From Candidatus Woesearchaeota archaeon (GTDB taxonomy: Archaea; Nanobdellota; Nanobdellia; Woesearchaeales; JAGVYF01): 64,000 bases of DNA. This document shows positions 2,052 through 42,427 of the stretch, piece by piece; positions within the stretch are counted from its first letter, which is position 1, and each line of letters begins with the position of its first letter. The DNA lies in contig JBAZLJ010000001.1 in the NCBI GenBank assembly GCA_041650315.1, forward strand, positions 280,259-344,258. Direction: 5' to 3'. The notes beneath the pieces are model-generated. The model ran no database searches and was not told where the DNA came from. It saw nothing but the letters and a program-made list of their open reading frames with translations. A program made the position numbers and the translations under genes.

Positions 2052-2594
2052 TTATAAGATTAATAATGCGACCAATAATGATAGTATGCCCACCACATCG
2101 CCAACTGCTGTTATAAACGGCCCTATTATGTTGTTAGGGTCATGGCCTTTCTTGAAAAGATATAATATAGATACGAGCGTTAATGGAATTTCGATACCAT
2201 TCGATATGATTCCGGCTATCAATGGTATGATTATGATTGTGGGATAGTATAATCCCATCAAGTAATAATTGAATGTGAATGCTATCAATCCTAGCATAAT
2301 AGATACTAAGATTCCTAGGAGGAATGAGGCTATAATATTTCCTTTGATTATCTTGGTCTTCATTCGGTTAGGTTTTATTATATGCAGGAATAGTCCCGAA
2401 GTTATTCTTGATGAGAAAGACCCAGCTATGTTGTTGCGCATTTCCAAGAAACCTGGAATCATTATGAGCATGCCAGGGATTATAAGAAGATTATCTTCAT
2501 ATATGGCTAATATAGTGCCAGCTATAATTCCGCCTATTATGCTGAACATCTGAGTGCCTAATATTTCAGTGAAATCTTTATCAAAAAATGCCAT
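2052..2594 (-). CDS. MgtE/SLC41-type divalent cation transporter membrane domain protein (paralog of the gene immediately downstream)
   Basis: GHDPNNIIGPFITAVGDVVGI signature in the last helix. Polytopic. Only a 1-bp gap to the neighbouring MgtE-TM gene. Confidence 0.55.
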   Translation of the reverse strand: MAFFDKDFTEILGTQMFSIIGGIIAGTILAIYEDNLLIIPGMLIMIPGFLEMRNNIAGSFSSRITSGLFLHIIKPNRMKTKIIKGNIIASFLLGILVSIMLGLIAFTFNYYLMGLYYPTIIIIPLIAGIISNGIEIPLTLVSILYLFKKGHDPNNIIGPFITAVGDVVGILSLLVALLIL

Positions 2595-2749
2595 CTGTAA
2601 ATATACTGAATTCTATAATATATTAATGTTTTGAATATGCATATTGATTTTATTGATTACAAATATTTATATATTGAAACTGCCTGAATTTAGATGTATT
2701 AATAACATAATATAACATAATATATTATAATTATAGGGTGTGATAGAAT

Positions 2750-3100
2750 ATGCCAAAAACAATAATGGTTGTTGATGATGAGCCGGATATCCGCGCTACA
2801 GTAAAAACAGTTCTTGAGAAGAATGGTTTCAAAGTCATTACCGCAGTAAATGGCGATGATTGCCTTGATAAGCTGAAGAAAGAGAAACCTGATCTGATAC
2901 TTCTTGACATAATGATGCCGGGGACTCCTGTCAAAGAGATTGTGCCTAAGATTAAGGGCAAAATCGCATATCTGACTGTTGTCAGAGTGACTGAAGCGGA
3001 GAAAGAGCAACTTTTGAAAAATAAGAATATAGTAGATTTCATACAGAAGCCTTTCGATATCAAAGACTTAGTGAAAAGAGTGACTAAATTAACTTCATGA
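2750..3100 (+). CDS. Stand-alone response regulator receiver (CheY-like REC) domain protein
   Basis: MVVDDEPDIR...LILLDIMMPG...K. Conserved acidic pocket (DD), phospho-acceptor Asp in LLDIMMP, and conserved Lys. 116 aa. Confidence 0.85.
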   Translation: MPKTIMVVDDEPDIRATVKTVLEKNGFKVITAVNGDDCLDKLKKEKPDLILLDIMMPGTPVKEIVPKIKGKIAYLTVVRVTEAEKEQLLKNKNIVDFIQKPFDIKDLVKRVTKLTS

Positions 3101-3639
3101 GATTGGTTGAAATGGATATTACTAAAGAATTGAAGGACAATCAGGTTGTGCTTTTGCTAGTTGAGGGATTGGAGTACAATGATCTTTCTTTGAAAGTGGC
3201 TAAAGAACTTTTCGGCAAGAAAGTGTGCTATGTGACTCTGAACAAGACGTGCCCTTCGATTATCGAGAACTTTTCGAAAGCGAATATAAAAACTAAGGGT
3301 GTGACGTTTGTTGATGCAATTTCCAAAACTATTACCGGCAGGCCTAAGGCAGTTGACTCTTGCATGTATCTCAGTTCGCCAGGAGCATTGACTGAGTTGT
3401 CAATAGCAATCACTGAATTCATAAGGGAAGGATATGATTATATCATCTTTGATTCATTGACTAATTTGCTGATATACCAGGGCAAAGGGCCTGTCGCTAA
3501 ATTCGTCGCTAATCTGATCACTAAGATAAAAGCCAGCAAGACTCGCGCTGTGTTTTATGCACTTAAAGTCGATCAGCATCAAGAGCTTATACAGGAAGCG
3601 TCCATGTTTGTAGATAAAGTTGTGGATGCGAGCAAATAA
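3097..3639 (+). CDS. KaiC/RecA-fold (COG0467-like) protein with degenerate Walker A
   Basis: Start overlaps the REC gene stop (ATGA). The layout VVLLLVEGLEYNDL...DYIIFDSLTNLL resembles the KaiC/RadA-like core, but the GxxxxGK[ST] P-loop is replaced by EGLEYNDL. Family call is by pattern only. Confidence 0.4.
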   Translation: MRLVEMDITKELKDNQVVLLLVEGLEYNDLSLKVAKELFGKKVCYVTLNKTCPSIIENFSKANIKTKGVTFVDAISKTITGRPKAVDSCMYLSSPGALTELSIAITEFIREGYDYIIFDSLTNLLIYQGKGPVAKFVANLITKIKASKTRAVFYALKVDQHQELIQEASMFVDKVVDASK

Positions 3640-3691
3640 TCTCAATCATATCAGTATCGGGAAAGATTTTGTTTCCCATAATCAGTTTAAC

Positions 3692-5866
3692 ATGAAAGAG
3701 CAACCGAAAAAAGAGGGAGTTGATTCAAGTAGGTCTTTTTCTAGATTTTATTTCAGCAAATTGAATATTAAATTATTCATGATAGCTTTCATGTTTTTAA
3801 TTCTCGCAATATCTTCTTTTGGGATAGTCATCTATTATGTGGTCATTGATTCATTGAGTTTTCAGATACAATCTGAATTAGAATTGGCGGCCACTTTGAC
3901 TTCCAATCATGTAATAACCTATTTCGATGAAAAGACTGAGCTTATCAAGCTGATAACCAGTAGAACGCAGTTGAGGCGGGATTTGAATAATTATATTTCT
4001 GCTCCGAATCAGGATTTATACAATGAGATTGTGCTAAAACTTAAGGATTCTAAAGGGTCGATTGAGGAAATACAAAATCTTTGCTTCATCAATATGGGAG
4101 GCATTGTAGATGCCTGCAGTGATAATAGTATCACCGGAACTGATTTTTCTCAAGAAAGATTTTTTTCACAAGGCAAAATTTCAGAAGGCAGTTATTTCTT
4201 TAAAAATTCAGGCAATTGGAATATTGTGATTTCCGGTCCGATATATGAAAATAATCAGATATTGGGCGTCGTAATAGTAGTGTATGGTTTGCAAGAGCTT
4301 GGTGATATCATCACAGAAAGAGCTGGATTAGGGGAGACTGGTGAAGTATTGATTGCATTCAATGATAATAATGGGCAGACCATATATCCTTTGCCAAGGC
4401 GTTTTGAGAATGATGCGGTATCTATGAATTTTGTGGGATTACCGATGCAAGCTGCTCTAAATAAAGAATCTACTTTTTTTAAGAAAACCTATGATTACAG
4501 GGATGTGCAGGTGATTGCGGCTACTAAATATATTGACAGCGTTAAATTAGGATTGGTATCAAAAATAGATTATGCTGAAGCCATTCTGCCGGTACGTGAC
4601 AGACTTATTATTCTTTTCGTCAGAGTTAGCTTAATCTTAGTTCTGGTCTTGACATTGCTTTTCTTTTTAATATCTCTACGTATAATTAAACCTATACATG
4701 AGTTGATATCCGCTGCTGAAAGGTTGAAGAACAATGATTTCAAAGTTCATTTGAATATCAAGACTGATGATGAGCTTGAGCAGTTAGCGGGGACTTTTAA
4801 TACTACTGCAGAGATACTTGATAATCTTGAGAATGAAAGAAAACAGATTGATAAGGCGAAGACTGAGTTCTTGTCAATCACGTCGCATGAATTGCGAAGT
4901 CCGATGACGCCGATGAGGGCGCAATTGCAAATGGTGCTCGGTGATTATTTCGGGAAACTTAATGCTGAACAGAGGAATGCGCTTGAGATTGTGCTGAACA
5001 ATACTGAACGTCTTGACAAGATAATCGTCGATTTCCTTGAGATCTCGCGTATTGAGGCTGCTCGTTTGAAATTCAATTTCGTGAAAGCTGATTTAACTAA
5101 AATGATAAATCTTGTTGTTGAAGAAGTTAAATCATTTATGCCTGAGAAGAAACTTCGGATTGAGTTGGATGTCGGCAGATTGCCCATTATTGAATGCGAT
5201 CCTGACCGTGTATCACAAGTACTGCGTAATCTTTTGACAAATTCTATTAAATTCTCGCATCAGAACGGGCGTGTTTTAGTGTCTGTGAAGCACACAGATG
5301 GAATGATTCAGTTTAGCGTGAAAGATGAGGGTGTAGGCATATCCGAGAAAGATCAGAAGCATCTTTTCGAGCCGTTCTTCCAAGTCGAGAATATGTATCA
5401 GCATAAATCCGGCGGTACTGGTCTAGGGCTTGCTATCTGTAAGGGCATTGTAGAGAGTCAGAACGGGAGGATTTGGCTTGTTTCTCAAGAAGGCAAAGGA
5501 ACTGTTTTTAATTTCACTGTGCCGTTGAAACCAGTGCATGAGATTAAGGCCATAAAGATTTTGTTCTCGAACGGACAGAAGACGGATGAGCTCGTCAAAA
5601 ATTTATTTATTGAATATATCGGGCCATTAGGTGAACGTGAATTCGAGGAATTGCAGAAAAGCAAAGGGATTACTTATGAATCTGTGCATCAATATATATC
5701 GGATTTAGCCAAGAAAGGAATACTTATGAAAGAGAATTCCGAAGAATTTAAAAGCAAGATTGCTATGGTATTTGGCAGAGAAGAAAAAGAGGTTAAGAAA
5801 TTGAAAAAGAAAGAGAGATTGACTTTGCCTCAACAGGAGGTAGCTGAGTTTTTCAGCAAAAACTAA
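3692..5866 (+). CDS. Sensor histidine kinase: N-terminal TM, extracytoplasmic Cache-like sensor, second TM, HAMP, HisKA (H-box ITSHELRSP), HATPase_c (GGTGLGLAICKGIVE), plus an extra C-terminal ~115 aa module
   Basis: H-box SHELRSPMTPM. N-box LRNLLTNSIKFS. G-boxes DEGVGI and GGTGLGL. Two TM segments flank a ~270 aa periplasmic-type domain. The ORF is open from 3620 (MWMRANN...) but ATG 3692 (MKEQPKKEG) avoids overlap with the upstream gene. Confidence 0.85.
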   Translation: MKEQPKKEGVDSSRSFSRFYFSKLNIKLFMIAFMFLILAISSFGIVIYYVVIDSLSFQIQSELELAATLTSNHVITYFDEKTELIKLITSRTQLRRDLNNYISAPNQDLYNEIVLKLKDSKGSIEEIQNLCFINMGGIVDACSDNSITGTDFSQERFFSQGKISEGSYFFKNSGNWNIVISGPIYENNQILGVVIVVYGLQELGDIITERAGLGETGEVLIAFNDNNGQTIYPLPRRFENDAVSMNFVGLPMQAALNKESTFFKKTYDYRDVQVIAATKYIDSVKLGLVSKIDYAEAILPVRDRLIILFVRVSLILVLVLTLLFFLISLRIIKPIHELISAAERLKNNDFKVHLNIKTDDELEQLAGTFNTTAEILDNLENERKQIDKAKTEFLSITSHELRSPMTPMRAQLQMVLGDYFGKLNAEQRNALEIVLNNTERLDKIIVDFLEISRIEAARLKFNFVKADLTKMINLVVEEVKSFMPEKKLRIELDVGRLPIIECDPDRVSQVLRNLLTNSIKFSHQNGRVLVSVKHTDGMIQFSVKDEGVGISEKDQKHLFEPFFQVENMYQHKSGGTGLGLAICKGIVESQNGRIWLVSQEGKGTVFNFTVPLKPVHEIKAIKILFSNGQKTDELVKNLFIEYIGPLGEREFEELQKSKGITYESVHQYISDLAKKGILMKENSEEFKSKIAMVFGREEKEVKKLKKKERLTLPQQEVAEFFSKN

Positions 5867-26690: not shown

Positions 26691-27410
26691 GTGATATTCA
26701 TGAATAAAAAACTAAATTGTATCTTCTTAATCTCAGTTATGGTCATTCTTTTCTCAAGTCTTGTTTCAGCAGATGTTGTTGAAGGCATTCAAGTCTGTCA
26801 AGATCCGAATACAGGCAAGCAGATGAGCGGCGATGCGTGCAAGGGTATTTGTTTATCCGGTTCTAAGTTCGTATATTGCAATGCACCTGCTACAACTACT
26901 GAACCAGTGACTGCACCAACACAAACTGTTCCTACTACAACTGAGCAGATAATCGAACAGTTAGAGATTGAGACTGCTACAGCTAAAGGACAGAGGTATT
27001 TCGAAGAGTATATCACTTTGAAAAATAAATATTCTGAGCTTATAGGTGAGTTATCTGCAAAAGAATTCGAAGAGAAAATGGCTCAGCTCGCTAAGGATAG
27101 CGAATGTTATAATTGCAATACCGGTTGCACTGGTGATTGCGCAGATGAGTTCCAGGCGTGCCTTGATGCGTGTAATGCAGAAAGTGAACTCGCGATGAAA
27201 GAGATTGAAGCAAAATATGCACCTATGAAAGCTGAGCTTGAATCATTACAAAAATCTGAATTAGGTAAATTGCTAACGACTGTGAAAGACTCAAGTGCTT
27301 CTAAAGGCATTCTTTCTGGAATAGGCAGATGGTTCAGGAATCTTTTTGGTCAGATATTCTTCAAGACGAAGACTTCTGATGCTGGTCGAGTGATGACTCC
27401 GGTGTATTGA
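26691..27410 (+). CDS. Secreted Cys-rich hypothetical protein
   Basis: Signal peptide MNKKLNCIFLISVMVILFSSLVSA. Thr/Pro linker. Cys cluster CYNCNTGCTGDCADEFQACLDACN. Confidence 0.4.
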   Translation: MIFMNKKLNCIFLISVMVILFSSLVSADVVEGIQVCQDPNTGKQMSGDACKGICLSGSKFVYCNAPATTTEPVTAPTQTVPTTTEQIIEQLEIETATAKGQRYFEEYITLKNKYSELIGELSAKEFEEKMAQLAKDSECYNCNTGCTGDCADEFQACLDACNAESELAMKEIEAKYAPMKAELESLQKSELGKLLTTVKDSSASKGILSGIGRWFRNLFGQIFFKTKTSDAGRVMTPVY

Positions 27411-36903: not shown

Positions 36904-37404
36904 ATGAATAAAAAATTAGTTTATGGATTGATAATATCTTTAATTGTAATTACCTTAGGTTATTATATTTCTCTTTATTCGTTGTTGTTATTTGGAATAC
37001 CTTCTCCTATTGATCCATTCGGAGCTCCTCCTGGAGTCTCTAATCCTAATTGCGGAGAGAGTAGATATGAATATGACGCCACAATTAATTCAAAAGAAGA
37101 TTTTATCAATTTTCTGAAACAAAATGAATTATCAGAACCTTTCAAAGGTAATGTGTACATATATTCTGATTTAATTAGCGATTTTAAGCTAAATTATGGA
37201 AATCTTACTGAATTTAATTCGGCTTTAAGATCCGGTAATTTGAAAAATAATTGGGATAAGGTATTGAATGATGTTAAAATAAGTAATGTCGGTTCTAGAG
37301 TTGTTTATGAAACAAGTTATACTTTTTTTTCTCTAGAATGTTCAGGTCATTTGAAAATGACTGAAGATGGTCATGTTTCTATGGTAGGTTGTTGCGGAGC
37401 ATAA
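36904..37404 (+). CDS. Membrane-anchored hypothetical protein
   Basis: N-terminal TM LVYGLIISLIVITLGYYISLYSLLLF followed by a soluble domain. Ends ...VGCCGA. Confidence 0.4.
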   Translation: MNKKLVYGLIISLIVITLGYYISLYSLLLFGIPSPIDPFGAPPGVSNPNCGESRYEYDATINSKEDFINFLKQNELSEPFKGNVYIYSDLISDFKLNYGNLTEFNSALRSGNLKNNWDKVLNDVKISNVGSRVVYETSYTFFSLECSGHLKMTEDGHVSMVGCCGA

Positions 37405-39072: not shown

Positions 39073-40758
39073 CTATGGTGTACCGCAACCGCCGGCTGGA
39101 GCTTCAGATGTGCTCAATGTGCTTGTGCATCCGCTTAGACCGGGATTAGCTTCGCAATAGGTTTGCTTGATGGTGTTAGCATCGAAACCGCCGAATTGTT
39201 TCTGATTGTTAGCTATCCATGTAGGACTGCCGCCAATATTCAATTCTTGCGCAATCTTGATGTCTTCGCTCAGCAATGCTTTGCCTTCATCGCCTTTAGA
39301 GCAAGTTTCTACTTTTGTGGAATCTATGCTAGCTGCTAATGCGCAGTCTTTCCAATCTAAGTCTTTCACGCCATTAGTAGATCTGCAATAGATGAAATTA
39401 AGCCATTTTTCTTGTGATGCGTATTTATTAACGCATAATTGGACAATATCTTCATCAACTTCGTATTGGCCGTGTAAGCTTTGGAATTCTCCATTCTGTT
39501 CATTAGCTATGTAATGGACACTGTATTTGACGTCTTCTTTGAAGTTTGTGACTACTTCTTTCAATGCTTTAACTGCTTCTTTTCCGTAAGGGCAGTCGCT
39601 CATCACGAACAATTGAAGGTCTTTCTTGATTTCTTCTCTGCATTCGAATGCGTCATTGCACTCAGTGTCTGCGCAGTCAATAAGTTCGTTATTGTTGTCA
39701 TCCACTTCGTTGTCGCAGATTTCTTTAGTTGGATCGAAGCTTGCTCCAATCATCAAATTAAGATATTTGCCTGATGGGACGAAATATCTTTCGATGTTCA
39801 CATAATTAGCATCTGTCTTGACTTCTTCAGTGAAAAGGATAGCTGGCAATGCTGTCAATTGTAGTTCATTGTATAACGCTTTACCTTCTTCGGTTGAATA
39901 ATCAAGGTTTGTAACTGCGAGTTTTGGGAATAGTTGATTTTTCAATGATTGAATGATTGGCGCTGAATCACATTCTTTGCATCTTGCGTCATTCAATACT
40001 GTGATCTTCACTTCTTTGATCTCAGGCAATTCTGCGCATGCTGGGGCTTTGTTGCCTGTTGCTTCGCAGATTGCTCTTATTAGATCATTTGGTGCTCTTC
40101 CACCAGCATATTGCACGCCGTTCAAATAGATTGTAGGGCTGCCTTGGACATTGAGAGATTGAGCTTTCTGGAATGATGCTGCGAGCAATGCTTTGCCTTC
40201 TTCGCCTTGGTAGCAAGTTTCCAATGTTTTTGAATCAATGCCTATTTCATCAGCGCATGTTGTCAATGATGAGACTAAATCACTTGGATTGTTTTTGTTT
40301 TGGCATGCTATAAAATCGAAATATACTGCTGGATAATGGTTTTTTGCACAAGCTTGTATCAAATCGCCTATGACTTCTGGTTCTCCATGAAGGCTGTTGA
40401 AATTCGTTCCATCAGTCTGGCCAATGAATTCTATGTTCATATTGACATAGCCTTTCATCTTGTCAACAACTTCTTTGAATGAGTTTTCTGCCTGCACCCC
40501 ATAAGGACATTGGCTCATGACATAAAGGTCGATATTAGCTTTATCACTTACTGTTGCGAATCCGGTTATTCCGTCTAAAAGATTAGGATAATTAGAATTG
40601 ACTACATATCCGATTGCGAAAACAACTGCTACGATTACTAGAAGTTTCTTATAATCGAAATTGCTTGCTTTTTGTTCAACCTTTGCTTCGACATTGATGA
40701 AAGCAGGTTTCACTTCCGGTTTTGCCGGTTCTGGATTTGCTTGTTGTTCCATTTCCAT
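39073..40758 (-). CDS. Membrane-anchored protein with two tandem GILT-like (thiol-reductase-like) domains carrying non-canonical active-site motifs
   Basis: N-terminal TM LLVIVAVVFAIGYVV. Each ~220-aa repeat has CPYG (where GILT has CxxC) and [FI]xSLHG[EQ]xEV (where GILT has CQHGxxEC), plus the GILT-like hY[IV]a/GQ..G block. About 25 Cys in total. Confidence 0.45.
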   Translation of the reverse strand: MEMEQQANPEPAKPEVKPAFINVEAKVEQKASNFDYKKLLVIVAVVFAIGYVVNSNYPNLLDGITGFATVSDKANIDLYVMSQCPYGVQAENSFKEVVDKMKGYVNMNIEFIGQTDGTNFNSLHGEPEVIGDLIQACAKNHYPAVYFDFIACQNKNNPSDLVSSLTTCADEIGIDSKTLETCYQGEEGKALLAASFQKAQSLNVQGSPTIYLNGVQYAGGRAPNDLIRAICEATGNKAPACAELPEIKEVKITVLNDARCKECDSAPIIQSLKNQLFPKLAVTNLDYSTEEGKALYNELQLTALPAILFTEEVKTDANYVNIERYFVPSGKYLNLMIGASFDPTKEICDNEVDDNNNELIDCADTECNDAFECREEIKKDLQLFVMSDCPYGKEAVKALKEVVTNFKEDVKYSVHYIANEQNGEFQSLHGQYEVDEDIVQLCVNKYASQEKWLNFIYCRSTNGVKDLDWKDCALAASIDSTKVETCSKGDEGKALLSEDIKIAQELNIGGSPTWIANNQKQFGGFDANTIKQTYCEANPGLSGCTSTLSTSEAPAGGCGTP

Positions 40759-40868: not shown

Positions 40869-41060
40869 TTAGATTTGTGTGTCTAAGTCTTGTTCCAATG
40901 CGTCTAGGTCAGATGTATCTACGCTTGTTTGGTCAATGGAATCGATATCCGATATGTCGGAACTTAAGTCCATTGAAGCATCTGTTGTTGTTTCTTTAGC
41001 GCAACCATACATTGTCGCTACTAATAACAACGCTAATATCAAAATTGCTGCTTTTTTCAT
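40869..41060 (-). CDS. Small secreted acidic lipoprotein-like peptide
   Basis: Signal peptide with ...VATMYGCAKE, then a D/S-rich 35 aa. Confidence 0.3.
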   Translation of the reverse strand: MKKAAILILALLLVATMYGCAKETTTDASMDLSSDISDIDSIDQTSVDTSDLDALEQDLDTQI

Positions 41061-41071
41061 TCATCTCACCT

Positions 41072-42427
41072 TTATGCAGTTCCTTCAACAGCTGCTTCTG
41101 CTGCATCTGTATTGGATTCTGCAAGCTCTTCAACGCCTTCATTGGATACTACGCTTTTTATAATTTGCTGTAGTATCTTCTGCGCATCTGCTAATGCTTG
41201 CTTAGCCAATTTCATGTGCTGTTCAGCTGCTTTGACGTATTCGTCAATAGCTTTCTTATCGGTGTCTGCCAGTTTAGCTTCGACTTTTTTATCCAATTCT
41301 GTCTGAGCTGCTTGGAATTCTGTCTTTGCAGTATCTAGCTTTACTTTGAATTGGTCTACCAATGGTTGGATAGTTGTTGTGTCTTTGCCGTTCTCTGTCA
41401 TCCTTTCCATGATCCTGTTCAATTTCACTTCAAGATATTTGGATTTGATGATTACTCCGCCCATTCTTGAGTTGACTAATCTTGCATTGACTGATTTGAT
41501 TACCAATTTAGCATCAGCAATAGCGCCTTTCATCTCTTTCATCGCCGCATTCACTTCTTCTTTGGTAGAATTTTCGTTAAGAGCTGCAATCTTTGCCTTG
41601 ACATCATTGATGTCTTCTATCTCTTGATCGAGCCAGCCTTTATAGACAATAGTGTTCTCTTCAGTTATATACTCTGAAGATTCTACATTAGCAAGCACTT
41701 TCTCAAGCATTTTGATAGTCTGGTCTGCTGCGTTGTTTGTCATGTCTCTTGCTTTAATTTTCAGTTCTTTATCCTTTTCTTCACAATCATCTGCTTCTTT
41801 GCAAACTTTTCTTTCTGCTAACTTAGCTGCTAAATCTGCTTTCAATGTCAGATGTTTTGCTTTAGCTTCGTCTACTCTAGCTTTTGCGTTAAGATAATTT
41901 AGGTTAGATTTCTCTTTCTTCTCTTTGATTAATTCTCTTACTTTGAACTCTTTGTCTTTATCGAATCCTTGGAATCCAGATTCGTCTTTCATTTCATTGA
42001 ATCTTTCGATTGCTTTGTTTTTAAGTTCAACGAGTTTCTGCAATCTTGTGAGATCCTTCTCTTGAAGTTTCTGCACTAGCTCAGTTCTTTTCTGCAGTTT
42101 CTCTTCACATTTAGTAGAATCGTTGCTTGTTTCTTTGCAAAGTTCTATTGCTTTATTCAATTGCTCTTGCTGAAATAACCTGAATTCTTCAGCTTTCAAG
42201 CTTTCAATTTCCCTTTCTCCAGCCATGACAGCTTTCCTTATAGAATTGATAGTATTTCCTTCGGAATCAGCCATCATCTTTGGTTCGTCTATTTCGTTTT
42301 CTTCGTCATCTTGTGTGCTATATTTACCATTTTTACCATTTTCTGCGAATGCTGTTGGTATTATGCTTATCATAAACATGCATAAAACCAATATCGCGAA
42401 TGTTTTTTTCATTTTCGTAACCTCCAT
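41072..42427 (-). CDS. Secreted long coiled-coil protein (K/E-rich)
   Basis: Signal peptide MKKTFAILVLCMFMISIIPTAFA. About 400 aa of heptad-rich, charged sequence with a few Cys. Confidence 0.4.
   Translation of the reverse strand: MEVTKMKKTFAILVLCMFMISIIPTAFAENGKNGKYSTQDDEENEIDEPKMMADSEGNTINSIRKAVMAGEREIESLKAEEFRLFQQEQLNKAIELCKETSNDSTKCEEKLQKRTELVQKLQEKDLTRLQKLVELKNKAIERFNEMKDESGFQGFDKDKEFKVRELIKEKKEKSNLNYLNAKARVDEAKAKHLTLKADLAAKLAERKVCKEADDCEEKDKELKIKARDMTNNAADQTIKMLEKVLANVESSEYITEENTIVYKGWLDQEIEDINDVKAKIAALNENSTKEEVNAAMKEMKGAIADAKLVIKSVNARLVNSRMGGVIIKSKYLEVKLNRIMERMTENGKDTTTIQPLVDQFKVKLDTAKTEFQAAQTELDKKVEAKLADTDKKAIDEYVKAAEQHMKLAKQALADAQKILQQIIKSVVSNEGVEELAESNTDAAEAAVEGTA

Follow-up and report, generated by a model that had tools for sequence, protein, structure and literature searches.

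The 64,000 nucleotide stretch of Candidatus Woesearchaeota DNA analyzed here (contig JBAZLJ010000001.1; the whole stretch is termed the window) contains a gene for a membrane-anchored protein with two domains similar to GILT, a thiol reductase. In both domains the second cysteine of the active site is missing. The question raised by this locus is what kind of protein it encodes, and whether thiol-disulfide chemistry may proceed at such sites. The translation of positions 39073..40758 equals a public protein (P0001) over 100% of its length, and P0001 is deposited as ‘MAG: DsbA family protein [Candidatus Woesearchaeota archaeon]’ (MAG, metagenome-assembled genome). It is almost certainly a three-domain thioredoxin-superfamily protein on a membrane anchor. 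It belongs to a large uncharacterised prokaryotic family which, from its sequence features, probably shuffles or reduces disulfides in secreted proteins by a non-standard mechanism. The identity of the family is solid, and its function we infer from sequence.

Domain architecture and relationship to GILT

Along the chain the order is a transmembrane anchor, GILT-like domain A, a thioredoxin domain similar to the archaeal PDO protein, a linker with four cysteines (Cys4 linker), GILT-like domain B and a tail with a cysteine (Table 1). The AlphaFold2 model of the whole protein has a predicted local distance difference test score (pLDDT) of 89.1, and all three thioredoxin-superfamily domains in this one chain are modelled at high confidence. 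The protein has 21 Cys, and all of them are invariant or nearly so in an alignment of 36 diverse homologs. The initial annotation, made from the DNA sequence, had counted about 25; the central thioredoxin domain with C260-KE-C263, the Cys4 linker and the tail residue C558 are additional to it.

Table 1. Positions of the gene and its features in the window, and of thioredoxin-like open reading frames next to three homologs (aa, amino acid)
Feature	Position	Strand	Remarks
Whole gene, 561 aa + stop	39073..40758	(-)	single ATG-to-stop open reading frame
N-terminal tail, aa 1-37	40648..40758	(-)	low-complexity, charged, low pLDDT; predicted cytoplasmic
Transmembrane signal-anchor, aa 38-57	40588..40647	(-)	single; one hydrophobic segment in protein
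GILT-like domain A, aa 72-245	40024..40545	(-)	DsbA-type thioredoxin fold with helical insert
C84-P-Y-G87	40498..40509	(-)	domain A active-site position; nucleophilic Cys retained, resolving Cys replaced by Gly
S122-LHGEPEV-129	40372..40395	(-)	domain A counterpart of GILT signature CQHGxxEC; H124, G125 and E128 conserved, both Cys missing
S207-P208-T209	40132..40140	(-)	domain A cis-Pro loop, invariant
Central thioredoxin-fold domain, aa 247-342	39733..40020	(-)	nearest to Pyrococcus PDO N-terminal unit
C260-K-E-C263	39970..39981	(-)	intact Cys pair at canonical thioredoxin active-site position of central domain
L304-P305-A306	39841..39849	(-)	central-domain cis-Pro loop
Acidic Cys4 linker, aa 343-374	39637..39732	(-)
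GILT-like domain B, aa 377-545	39124..39630	(-)
C389-P-Y-G392	39583..39594	(-)	domain B active-site position
S427-LHGQYEV-434	39457..39480	(-)	domain B counterpart of GILT signature
S511-P512-T513	39220..39228	(-)	domain B cis-Pro loop
Flexible tail, aa 546-561	39076..39123	(-)	S/T/G/A/P-rich, with C558 3 residues from C-terminus
VKOR-type thioredoxin-like open reading frame, locus L010	4278-4670
VKOR-type thioredoxin-like open reading frame, locus L013	6840-7232
VKOR-type thioredoxin-like open reading frame, locus L073	7701-8069

Two lysines (KK) are found just before the transmembrane segment, and by the positive-inside rule the N-terminal tail is predicted to be on the cytoplasmic side. On these sequence features the protein is a type-II membrane protein with its domains outside the cytoplasm. 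Archaeal members of the family have the N-terminal signal anchor and bacterial members have lipoprotein signal peptides (lipoboxes) in its place, which agrees with the extracytoplasmic, membrane-anchored protein that had been proposed initially.

Between domains A (aa ~72-245) and B (~377-545) the identity is 40% (BLASTP E-value = 5e-37). The Pfam GILT model PF03227 matches the whole protein with an E-value of 6.7e-23 (81.5 bits) and the single domains with 45.3 bits (A) and 43.3 bits (B), covering model positions 1-106 of 107; the gathering cutoff is 22.4 bits. A profile of the repeats (A2) has mouse GILT (6nwx) as its top match in the PDB (E-value = 3.8e-8), followed by the GILT-like central domain of plant vacuolar sorting receptor 1 (VSR; E-value = 8e-7), with DsbA and BdbD after these. 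Comparison of the AlphaFold2 model with the PDB by Foldseek also places 6nwx_A at the top (E-value = 2.1e-8, target-normalised template modelling score 0.80, root mean square deviation 2.7 A, 190 columns), and the runners-up are S. aureus DsbA, ScsC and BdbD. A eukaryote-type protein with four GILT domains that display CPxC and CQHGEKEC (P0241) is recovered by the profile at 6e-80. The duplicated GILT-like domains first read from the sequence are thus present, and the PF03227 search and structural comparison which had been suggested as checks both give significant similarity to GILT.

Residue-level alignments were made with mouse and human GILT, the human sequence being NP_006323.2 (P0269, by exact look-up). 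C84 and C389 align to the first Cys of the GILT CxxC motif, and G87 and G392 to the second. The cis-Pro and six other Cys per repeat coincide with those of GILT in the hmmsearch, hhalign and MAFFT alignments. The Cys that match the structural Cys of GILT are at positions 137, 152, 168, 182, 231 and 241 in domain A, and by alignment at 442, 458, 472, 486, 535 and 544 in domain B.

Two GILT motifs are altered in both domains. CXXC has been termed the ‘activity motif’ of GILT and CQHGX2ECX2NX4C its ‘signature sequence’, with no catalytic role described for the latter (PMC8631631). The activity motif is absent from both domains, which have CPYG, and SLHGEPEVIGDLIQAC and SLHGQYEVDEDIVQLC stand in the place of the signature. 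Of the signature residues the H, the G, the E and the final C remain, whereas Ser and Val replace the first and second Cys and the Asn is also lost. CPYG and the SLHGEPEV and SLHGQYEV motifs are found as described in the initial annotation. Its conclusion that both catalytic Cys pairs have been replaced does not follow, as only the CxxC is the activity motif and the first Cys of that motif is kept (see below). The lost signature Cys pair is probably structural.

From the HMM (hidden Markov model) matches, the fold and the cysteine framework, the outer domains are bona fide GILT-family domains of the DsbA type. The Pfam DSBA HMM also matches (E-value = 5.5e-15), as does Thioredoxin_4. However ‘DsbA family protein’ is only a superfamily label for this protein because the defining CxxC is missing from its DsbA-like domains, and the public name overstates what is known.

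GILT is the best match by sequence profile and by fold. The two share the DsbA-type thioredoxin fold with a helical insert, the position of the nucleophilic Cys, an H-G-x-x-E core, the cis-Pro, the six structural Cys and a short S/T-rich C-terminal tail with a Cys, and monothiol sites also occur in GILT, as insect GILTs are natural CXXS proteins (PMC10775533). Unlike GILT, the archaeal protein has Gly and not Cys or Ser at position 4 of the motif, Ser and Val in place of the signature Cys, and two GILT domains in one chain flanking an additional thioredoxin domain and the Cys4 linker. The family is membrane- or lipid-anchored on the prokaryotic surface, whereas GILT is soluble in the acidic lysosome, and the archaeal protein displays no sign of propeptide processing.

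The central domain, modelled alone, has a pLDDT of 95.7. Its profile matches the N-terminal unit of Pyrococcus PDO (1a8l/1j08) with an E-value of 2e-6; in this alignment (29% identity over 68 columns) C260-K-E-C263 lies on CQYC and P305 on the cis-Pro. PDO is also the best fold match (E-value = 5e-4), with classical thioredoxins next, and no Pfam family was found for the central domain on its own. The protein scores 26.3 bits against TIGR02187, the PDO equivalog model, which has a cutoff of 185. Unlike PDO it has only one PDO-like unit, a variable Cys spacing in the family and a C-terminal third that diverges from thioredoxin; PDO is also cytoplasmic, whereas the central domain is on the extracytoplasmic side. 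The central Cys pair is present in 264 of 269 family domains and the cis-Pro in 267 of 269. The two Cys are separated by two residues in 78% and by three to six in the remaining 22%. The pair may be redox-active or a structural staple.

The linker that follows has the consensus EICDNxxDDxxNxxxDCxDxxCxxxxxCR, with C348, C362, C367 and C373 invariant. It gives a weak match to NF033662 (E-value = 0.15), and its sequence is possibly that of a Ca-binding disulfide knot.

The arrangement is not restricted to this organism. A word-indexed search gave 1,137 matches among 8,000 scored candidates, and over 120 of the relatives found are full-length, at 42-60% identity. When the single-domain profile was run exhaustively with HMMER against 1.84 billion representatives of 50%-identity clusters, there were 6,973 matches at E<=1e-3, 3,045 at 1e-10 and 857 at 1e-30; among the top 150, almost every one is matched in two stretches. 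The order GILT-like, central, GILT-like (termed G-M-G) was found in 255 of 268 retrieved members, from DPANN and Altiarchaeota archaea, candidate phyla radiation (CPR) bacteria and Myxococcota. The tandem form, initially regarded as unusual for an archaeon, is therefore the standard architecture. In a scan of one genome per GTDB species, carriers are found among Woesearchaeota/Nanoarchaeia, Altiarchaeota, many Myxococcota and the CPR phyla Kuenen-, Peri- and Gracilibacteria, with a few Spirochaetales, Acidobacteriota and Binatia; all carriers found are MAGs.

A shorter architecture (M-G) displays the central thioredoxin domain, the Cys4 linker, one CPxG GILT-like domain and the tail Cys. It is found in eight loci (L060, L062, L063, L065, L066, L075, L076 and L080) from Altiarchaeota, Woesearchaeota and some bacteria. 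The family may have begun with M-G, repeat A being a later addition.

GILT has so far been treated as eukaryotic, and in 2008 it was described as without known prokaryotic homologs (PMC2398784). Here a large, well-conserved prokaryotic GILT clade is found with a CPxG variant, a fixed three-domain architecture and a conserved tail Cys. In the literature searched there was nothing relevant on the CPYG/CPFG motif or on prokaryotic GILT, and no description of the CPxG/A variant, the G-M-G architecture or the co-variation of the tail Cys that is presented below. The clade is concentrated in DPANN, CPR and Myxococcota, lineages in which extracytoplasmic disulfide chemistry is to our knowledge poorly characterised.

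The single-cysteine sites and the C-terminal cysteine

Conservation of the active site was counted over 537 GILT-like domains of the family. The nucleophilic first Cys is kept in 521, the signature His in 496 and the signature Glu in 526. Position 4 of the motif is Gly in 420 domains, Ala in 69, Cys in 20 and Ser in 10. The SPT loop is invariant in alignments of 36 and 26 sequences. In the AlphaFold2 model C84 is located immediately N-terminal to the helix at 85-100. Thus the elements kept are an exposed nucleophilic Cys at the N-terminus of helix alpha-1, a cis-Pro loop before the next strand, the His and Glu, and three structural Cys pairs; the vicinal resolving Cys is systematically missing, with Gly, or Ala in relatives, at its position. 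The Gly is a true Gly, the codons in the two CPYG motifs being GGG and GGA. Selenocysteine read-through at position 4 was considered and ruled out, since these codons are not TGA and the open reading frame is uninterrupted.

Judging from these alignments, the kept active-site elements are under strong purifying selection. The Cys, cis-Pro, His and Glu are near-invariant, therefore the sites look functional and not dead. Rare members without the Cys, e.g. P0208 in its domain B, are also without the His, and this joint loss looks like true degeneration against a functional background.

These observations bear on the possibility that the protein is a redox-inactive chaperone or receptor. Its thioredoxin folds would then be binding scaffolds, like the central domain of VSR or the b/b' domains of PDI, and all Cys would be structural or oligomerising, with the tail Cys linking two chains by a disulfide, which is what has been proposed for the precursor of human GILT. 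The VSR thioredoxin domain (PF25011; 8r4y, 9b1r) is, as noted, the second-best PDB relative of the domain profile, and is likewise a GILT-like fold within a multidomain membrane protein on the non-cytosolic side. However the archaeal protein scores 21 bits against VSR_TRX, below the threshold of 27, and the VSR domain lies between PA and EGF domains in a protein of cargo sorting. In a scaffold there would be nothing to hold the Cys, cis-Pro, His and Glu near-invariant, and the Cys-less domain that has also lost its His resembles degeneration of a site otherwise in use. Pure dimerisation would furthermore leave the distribution of the tail Cys described below unexplained. A purely redox-inactive protein is thus unlikely. 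The initial annotation had offered ‘redox-inactive or mechanistically different’; the second of these is retained and the first is not favoured, given the near-invariant residues and the intact central Cys pair.

Metal handling or another single-Cys chemistry would also make use of a lone Cys. Here the Cys, His and Glu would bind Cu(I) or Zn as in ScsC-type proteins, or the Cys would carry a sulfenate or persulfide (peroxidase, sulfur carrier). In each domain these three are the polar residues that hardly vary, Caulobacter ScsC (7rgv) ranks among the best fold matches, and with a residue as small as G or A at position 4 a ligand could fit. Eukaryotic GILT, however, which is a reductase, conserves this His and Glu too, and the gene context, as scanned in the window and at 84 homolog loci, is not one of metal transport or sulfur metabolism. 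This explanation is considered very improbable.

The tail after repeat B is 16 residues long in the archaeal protein and has a low pLDDT. In the family the length after the last structural Cys has a median of 17 residues and a minimum of 14, and of the 213 tails that have a Cys, 210 have it within 0-3 residues of the C-terminus. A tail Cys is present in 211 of 237 members with a monothiol domain B vs none of the 7 that have CxxC there (Fisher p 4.6e-7), and in 1 of 5 members with CxxC in domain A. Members with CxxC are scattered over at least 4-5 lineages, and on this account an artefact of a single clade behind the association is partly rejected. The Cys count of M-G proteins is typically 14, which is even (2+4+6+1+1), and the tail Cys is there in 8 of 8 loci; the G-M-G form has 21 Cys, with the repeat-A Cys left unpaired. 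The anticorrelation between tail Cys and CxxC suggests, at the level of sequence, that the tail Cys may be a remote resolving cysteine; for C558 a part in dimerisation is the other role proposed.

The explanation favoured overall is an extracytoplasmic, membrane-tethered thiol-disulfide exchange protein with monothiol GILT-like sites, and we give it about an even chance of being correct. Each CPxG Cys would attack a substrate disulfide to form a mixed disulfide. Because there is no vicinal resolving Cys, the mixed disulfide would be resolved either by a substrate thiol, with net isomerisation or shuffling as in CxxS proteins of the PDI/ERp44 type, or by a remote Cys of the same protein. The chief remote candidate would be C558 of the tail, swinging into domain B, and C260/C263 of the central domain might serve as a second relay. 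In DPANN and Altiarchaeota archaea, CPR bacteria and Myxococcota, the protein would in net effect be a PDI-like isomerase or reductase, or a quality-control factor, that acts on secreted and surface proteins. The monothiol mechanism with a remote resolving Cys, which draws on the sequence comparisons, is put forward tentatively, with slightly less than an even chance. If it is true, this would be a new way for thioredoxin-fold enzymes to complete thiol-disulfide exchange, and it could explain what the C-terminal Cys does in the precursors of eukaryotic GILT.

There is precedent for single-Cys sites in the PDI family, where ERp44 and Eug1p are cited as CxxS members (PMC10775533). The PDI family, including the CxxS members ERp44, Eug1p and AGR2, also consists of multidomain thioredoxin-fold chains outside the cytoplasm, with mixed disulfides formed at single-Cys sites, and a PDI-like multidomain isomerase with CxxS-type sites would be the closest functional analogy, in the sense of ‘works like’. 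Unlike PDI, the archaeal domains are of the DsbA/GILT type and not PDI a/b, their order is monothiol, dithiol, monothiol, position 4 is Gly or Ala, and no homology is apparent beyond the thioredoxin superfamily. Thioredoxin PF00085 (PDI a-type, CGHC sites) gave no match in the Pfam scan at E<=10. The role as disulfide isomerase or chaperone put forward in the initial annotation is a reasonable hypothesis.

Several points weigh against monothiol exchange with a remote resolving Cys. Position 4 holds Gly or Ala, whereas monothiol thioredoxin-fold enzymes usually have Ser or Thr there. The association of tail Cys and CxxC is phylogenetically uncorrected and rests on 7+5 CxxC cases, and several nearest relatives of the CxxC members are likewise without a tail Cys. 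The tail is of low pLDDT and undocked in the AlphaFold2 model. Human GILT carries both a CxxC and a tail Cys, therefore the tail Cys does not have to stand in for a resolving Cys; it may be ancestral and have another role. In the central pair the spacing varies (CxxC to Cx6C), which is atypical for a catalytic CxxC. VKOR, DsbB and CcdA were also not found among the window open reading frames scanned with Pfam (neighbours and candidate membrane proteins), and no DsbB, VKOR or CcdA partner is conserved beside homologs in 84 loci.

The C-terminus of human GILT (NP_006323.2) has the same layout as the archaeal one, i.e. a last structural Cys pair, an S/T-rich tail and a Cys near the end. The sequences suggest that the tail Cys may be a family-wide feature across prokaryotes and eukaryotes. 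The C-terminal propeptide Cys is said, in a 2002 report by Phan and colleagues, to mediate disulfide-linked dimerisation of the GILT precursor.

A wider proposal is that the prokaryotic form is an oxidative-folding or quality-control catalyst with a split active site, and that eukaryotic GILT, together with its C-terminal propeptide Cys, and the central domain of plant VSR arose from it. In the split site the single nucleophilic CPxG Cys would be resolved by the Cys on a flexible C-terminal arm. Taken as a whole this proposal is rather doubtful.

Domain A has an 11-residue insertion with an extra Cys pair (...C-LDGL-C-SMHG...) in a subset of homologs, among them rows 8 and 11 of alignment A2. 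The insertion is located just before the HG, and the pair is near to, but one residue off register from, the first Cys of the GILT CQHG.

Possible redox partners and the central cysteine pair

In three of the 84 loci an open reading frame of about 125 aa is found immediately downstream of the GILT-like gene (Table 1). Its product is a transmembrane-anchored thioredoxin-like protein with the motif YG[TA]WWCxHC, and it is homologous to the thioredoxin-like domain of the Synechococcus VKOR-thioredoxin fusion (3kp9, E-value = 4.7e-14). From its sequence this VKOR-type protein may be a redox partner where it occurs, which is in a minority of genomes. A tblastn search found no counterpart in the window. 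In one homolog (P0264) a conventional CPWC thioredoxin domain is present in place of repeat B, and this substitution and the VKOR-type neighbor give the family a redox context.

These findings, together with the central domain, relate to the alternative of a canonical DsbA-type oxidase. In this case C260/C263 would introduce disulfides, the GILT-like domains would be substrate-binding wings, and reoxidation would be by VKOR, DsbB or oxygen. The matches to Pfam DSBA and Thioredoxin_4, a conserved Cys pair and cis-Pro at the canonical site of the central domain, the VKOR-type neighbor in three loci and the extracytoplasmic location are in line with this. The fold class is also that of DsbA/BdbD/ScsC (PF01323, PF13462), with Foldseek E-values of 1e-6 to 1e-4 to S. 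aureus DsbA, ScsC and BdbD; the loop is of the Thr/Ser-cisPro-Thr type, and Gram-positive DsbA-like proteins have a similar membrane or lipoprotein anchoring. Unlike those proteins, however, the archaeal one is a tandem multidomain chain with GILT-type structural disulfides, as deduced by alignment, and its DsbA-like domains are without the defining CxxC. Its central domain has no helical insert and a Cys spacing that varies in the family, no DsbB or VKOR was detected among the scanned open reading frames of the window, and no such partner is conserved nearby. An oxidase of this type would moreover leave the near-invariant lone Cys of both outer domains unexplained, and it is regarded as quite improbable.

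Neighboring genes and fusions of the module

The gene downstream in the window is SRP54. An inference from operon structure or synteny was rejected: the flanks are unrelated in three distant homolog loci, and when all open reading frames of the 84 loci were clustered, no family was present in more than five loci. The SRP54 adjacency is coincidental. A scan for promoters and terminators gave nothing beyond shuffled expectation, archaeal promoters being outside the coverage of that scan.

The initial annotation had suggested that the protein could serve many Cys-rich secreted proteins encoded nearby. A census of open reading frames does not bear this out: only about 2-3 that look secreted have elevated Cys in the 64-kb window and none is adjacent, nor is there a conserved neighbor in the 84 loci. 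The target itself, with 3.7% Cys, is among the most Cys-rich of the window. The sole clearly Cys-rich secreted candidate is at 26700-27410 (+), about 12 kb from the target; it encodes 236 aa with an N-terminal signal-like segment and 11 Cys (4.7%), and has no Pfam family.

Directly upstream of the gene, at 40869-41060 (-), is a 63 aa open reading frame; the N-terminus of its product resembles a lipobox (...VATMYGC), and the body is very acidic and rich in S/T/D. This frame is preceded on the same strand, at 41072-42427 (-), by a 451 aa open reading frame that looks secreted and is Lys/Glu-rich; a guess from this composition is that the product is probably a coiled-coil. For these two upstream reading frames no Pfam family was found, and they are not conserved beside homologs. 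A 166 aa transmembrane-anchored open reading frame with 4 Cys and the end ...VGCCGA, also with no Pfam family, is located at 36904-37404 (+), between a hypothetical gene and SRP54.

Fusions of the module with other domains occur in Myxococcota members, with a kinase or with RCC1. P0160 has an N-terminal Ser/Thr protein kinase and a transmembrane segment joined to the module. P0155 and P0220 have N-terminal RCC1-like repeats and two central domains. At locus L001 the divergent neighbor of homolog P0017, at 2387-5662 (-), encodes 1,091 aa with STT3 oligosaccharyltransferase and PPIase (rotamase) domains, which is an unusual pairing of two secretory-protein maturation activities.

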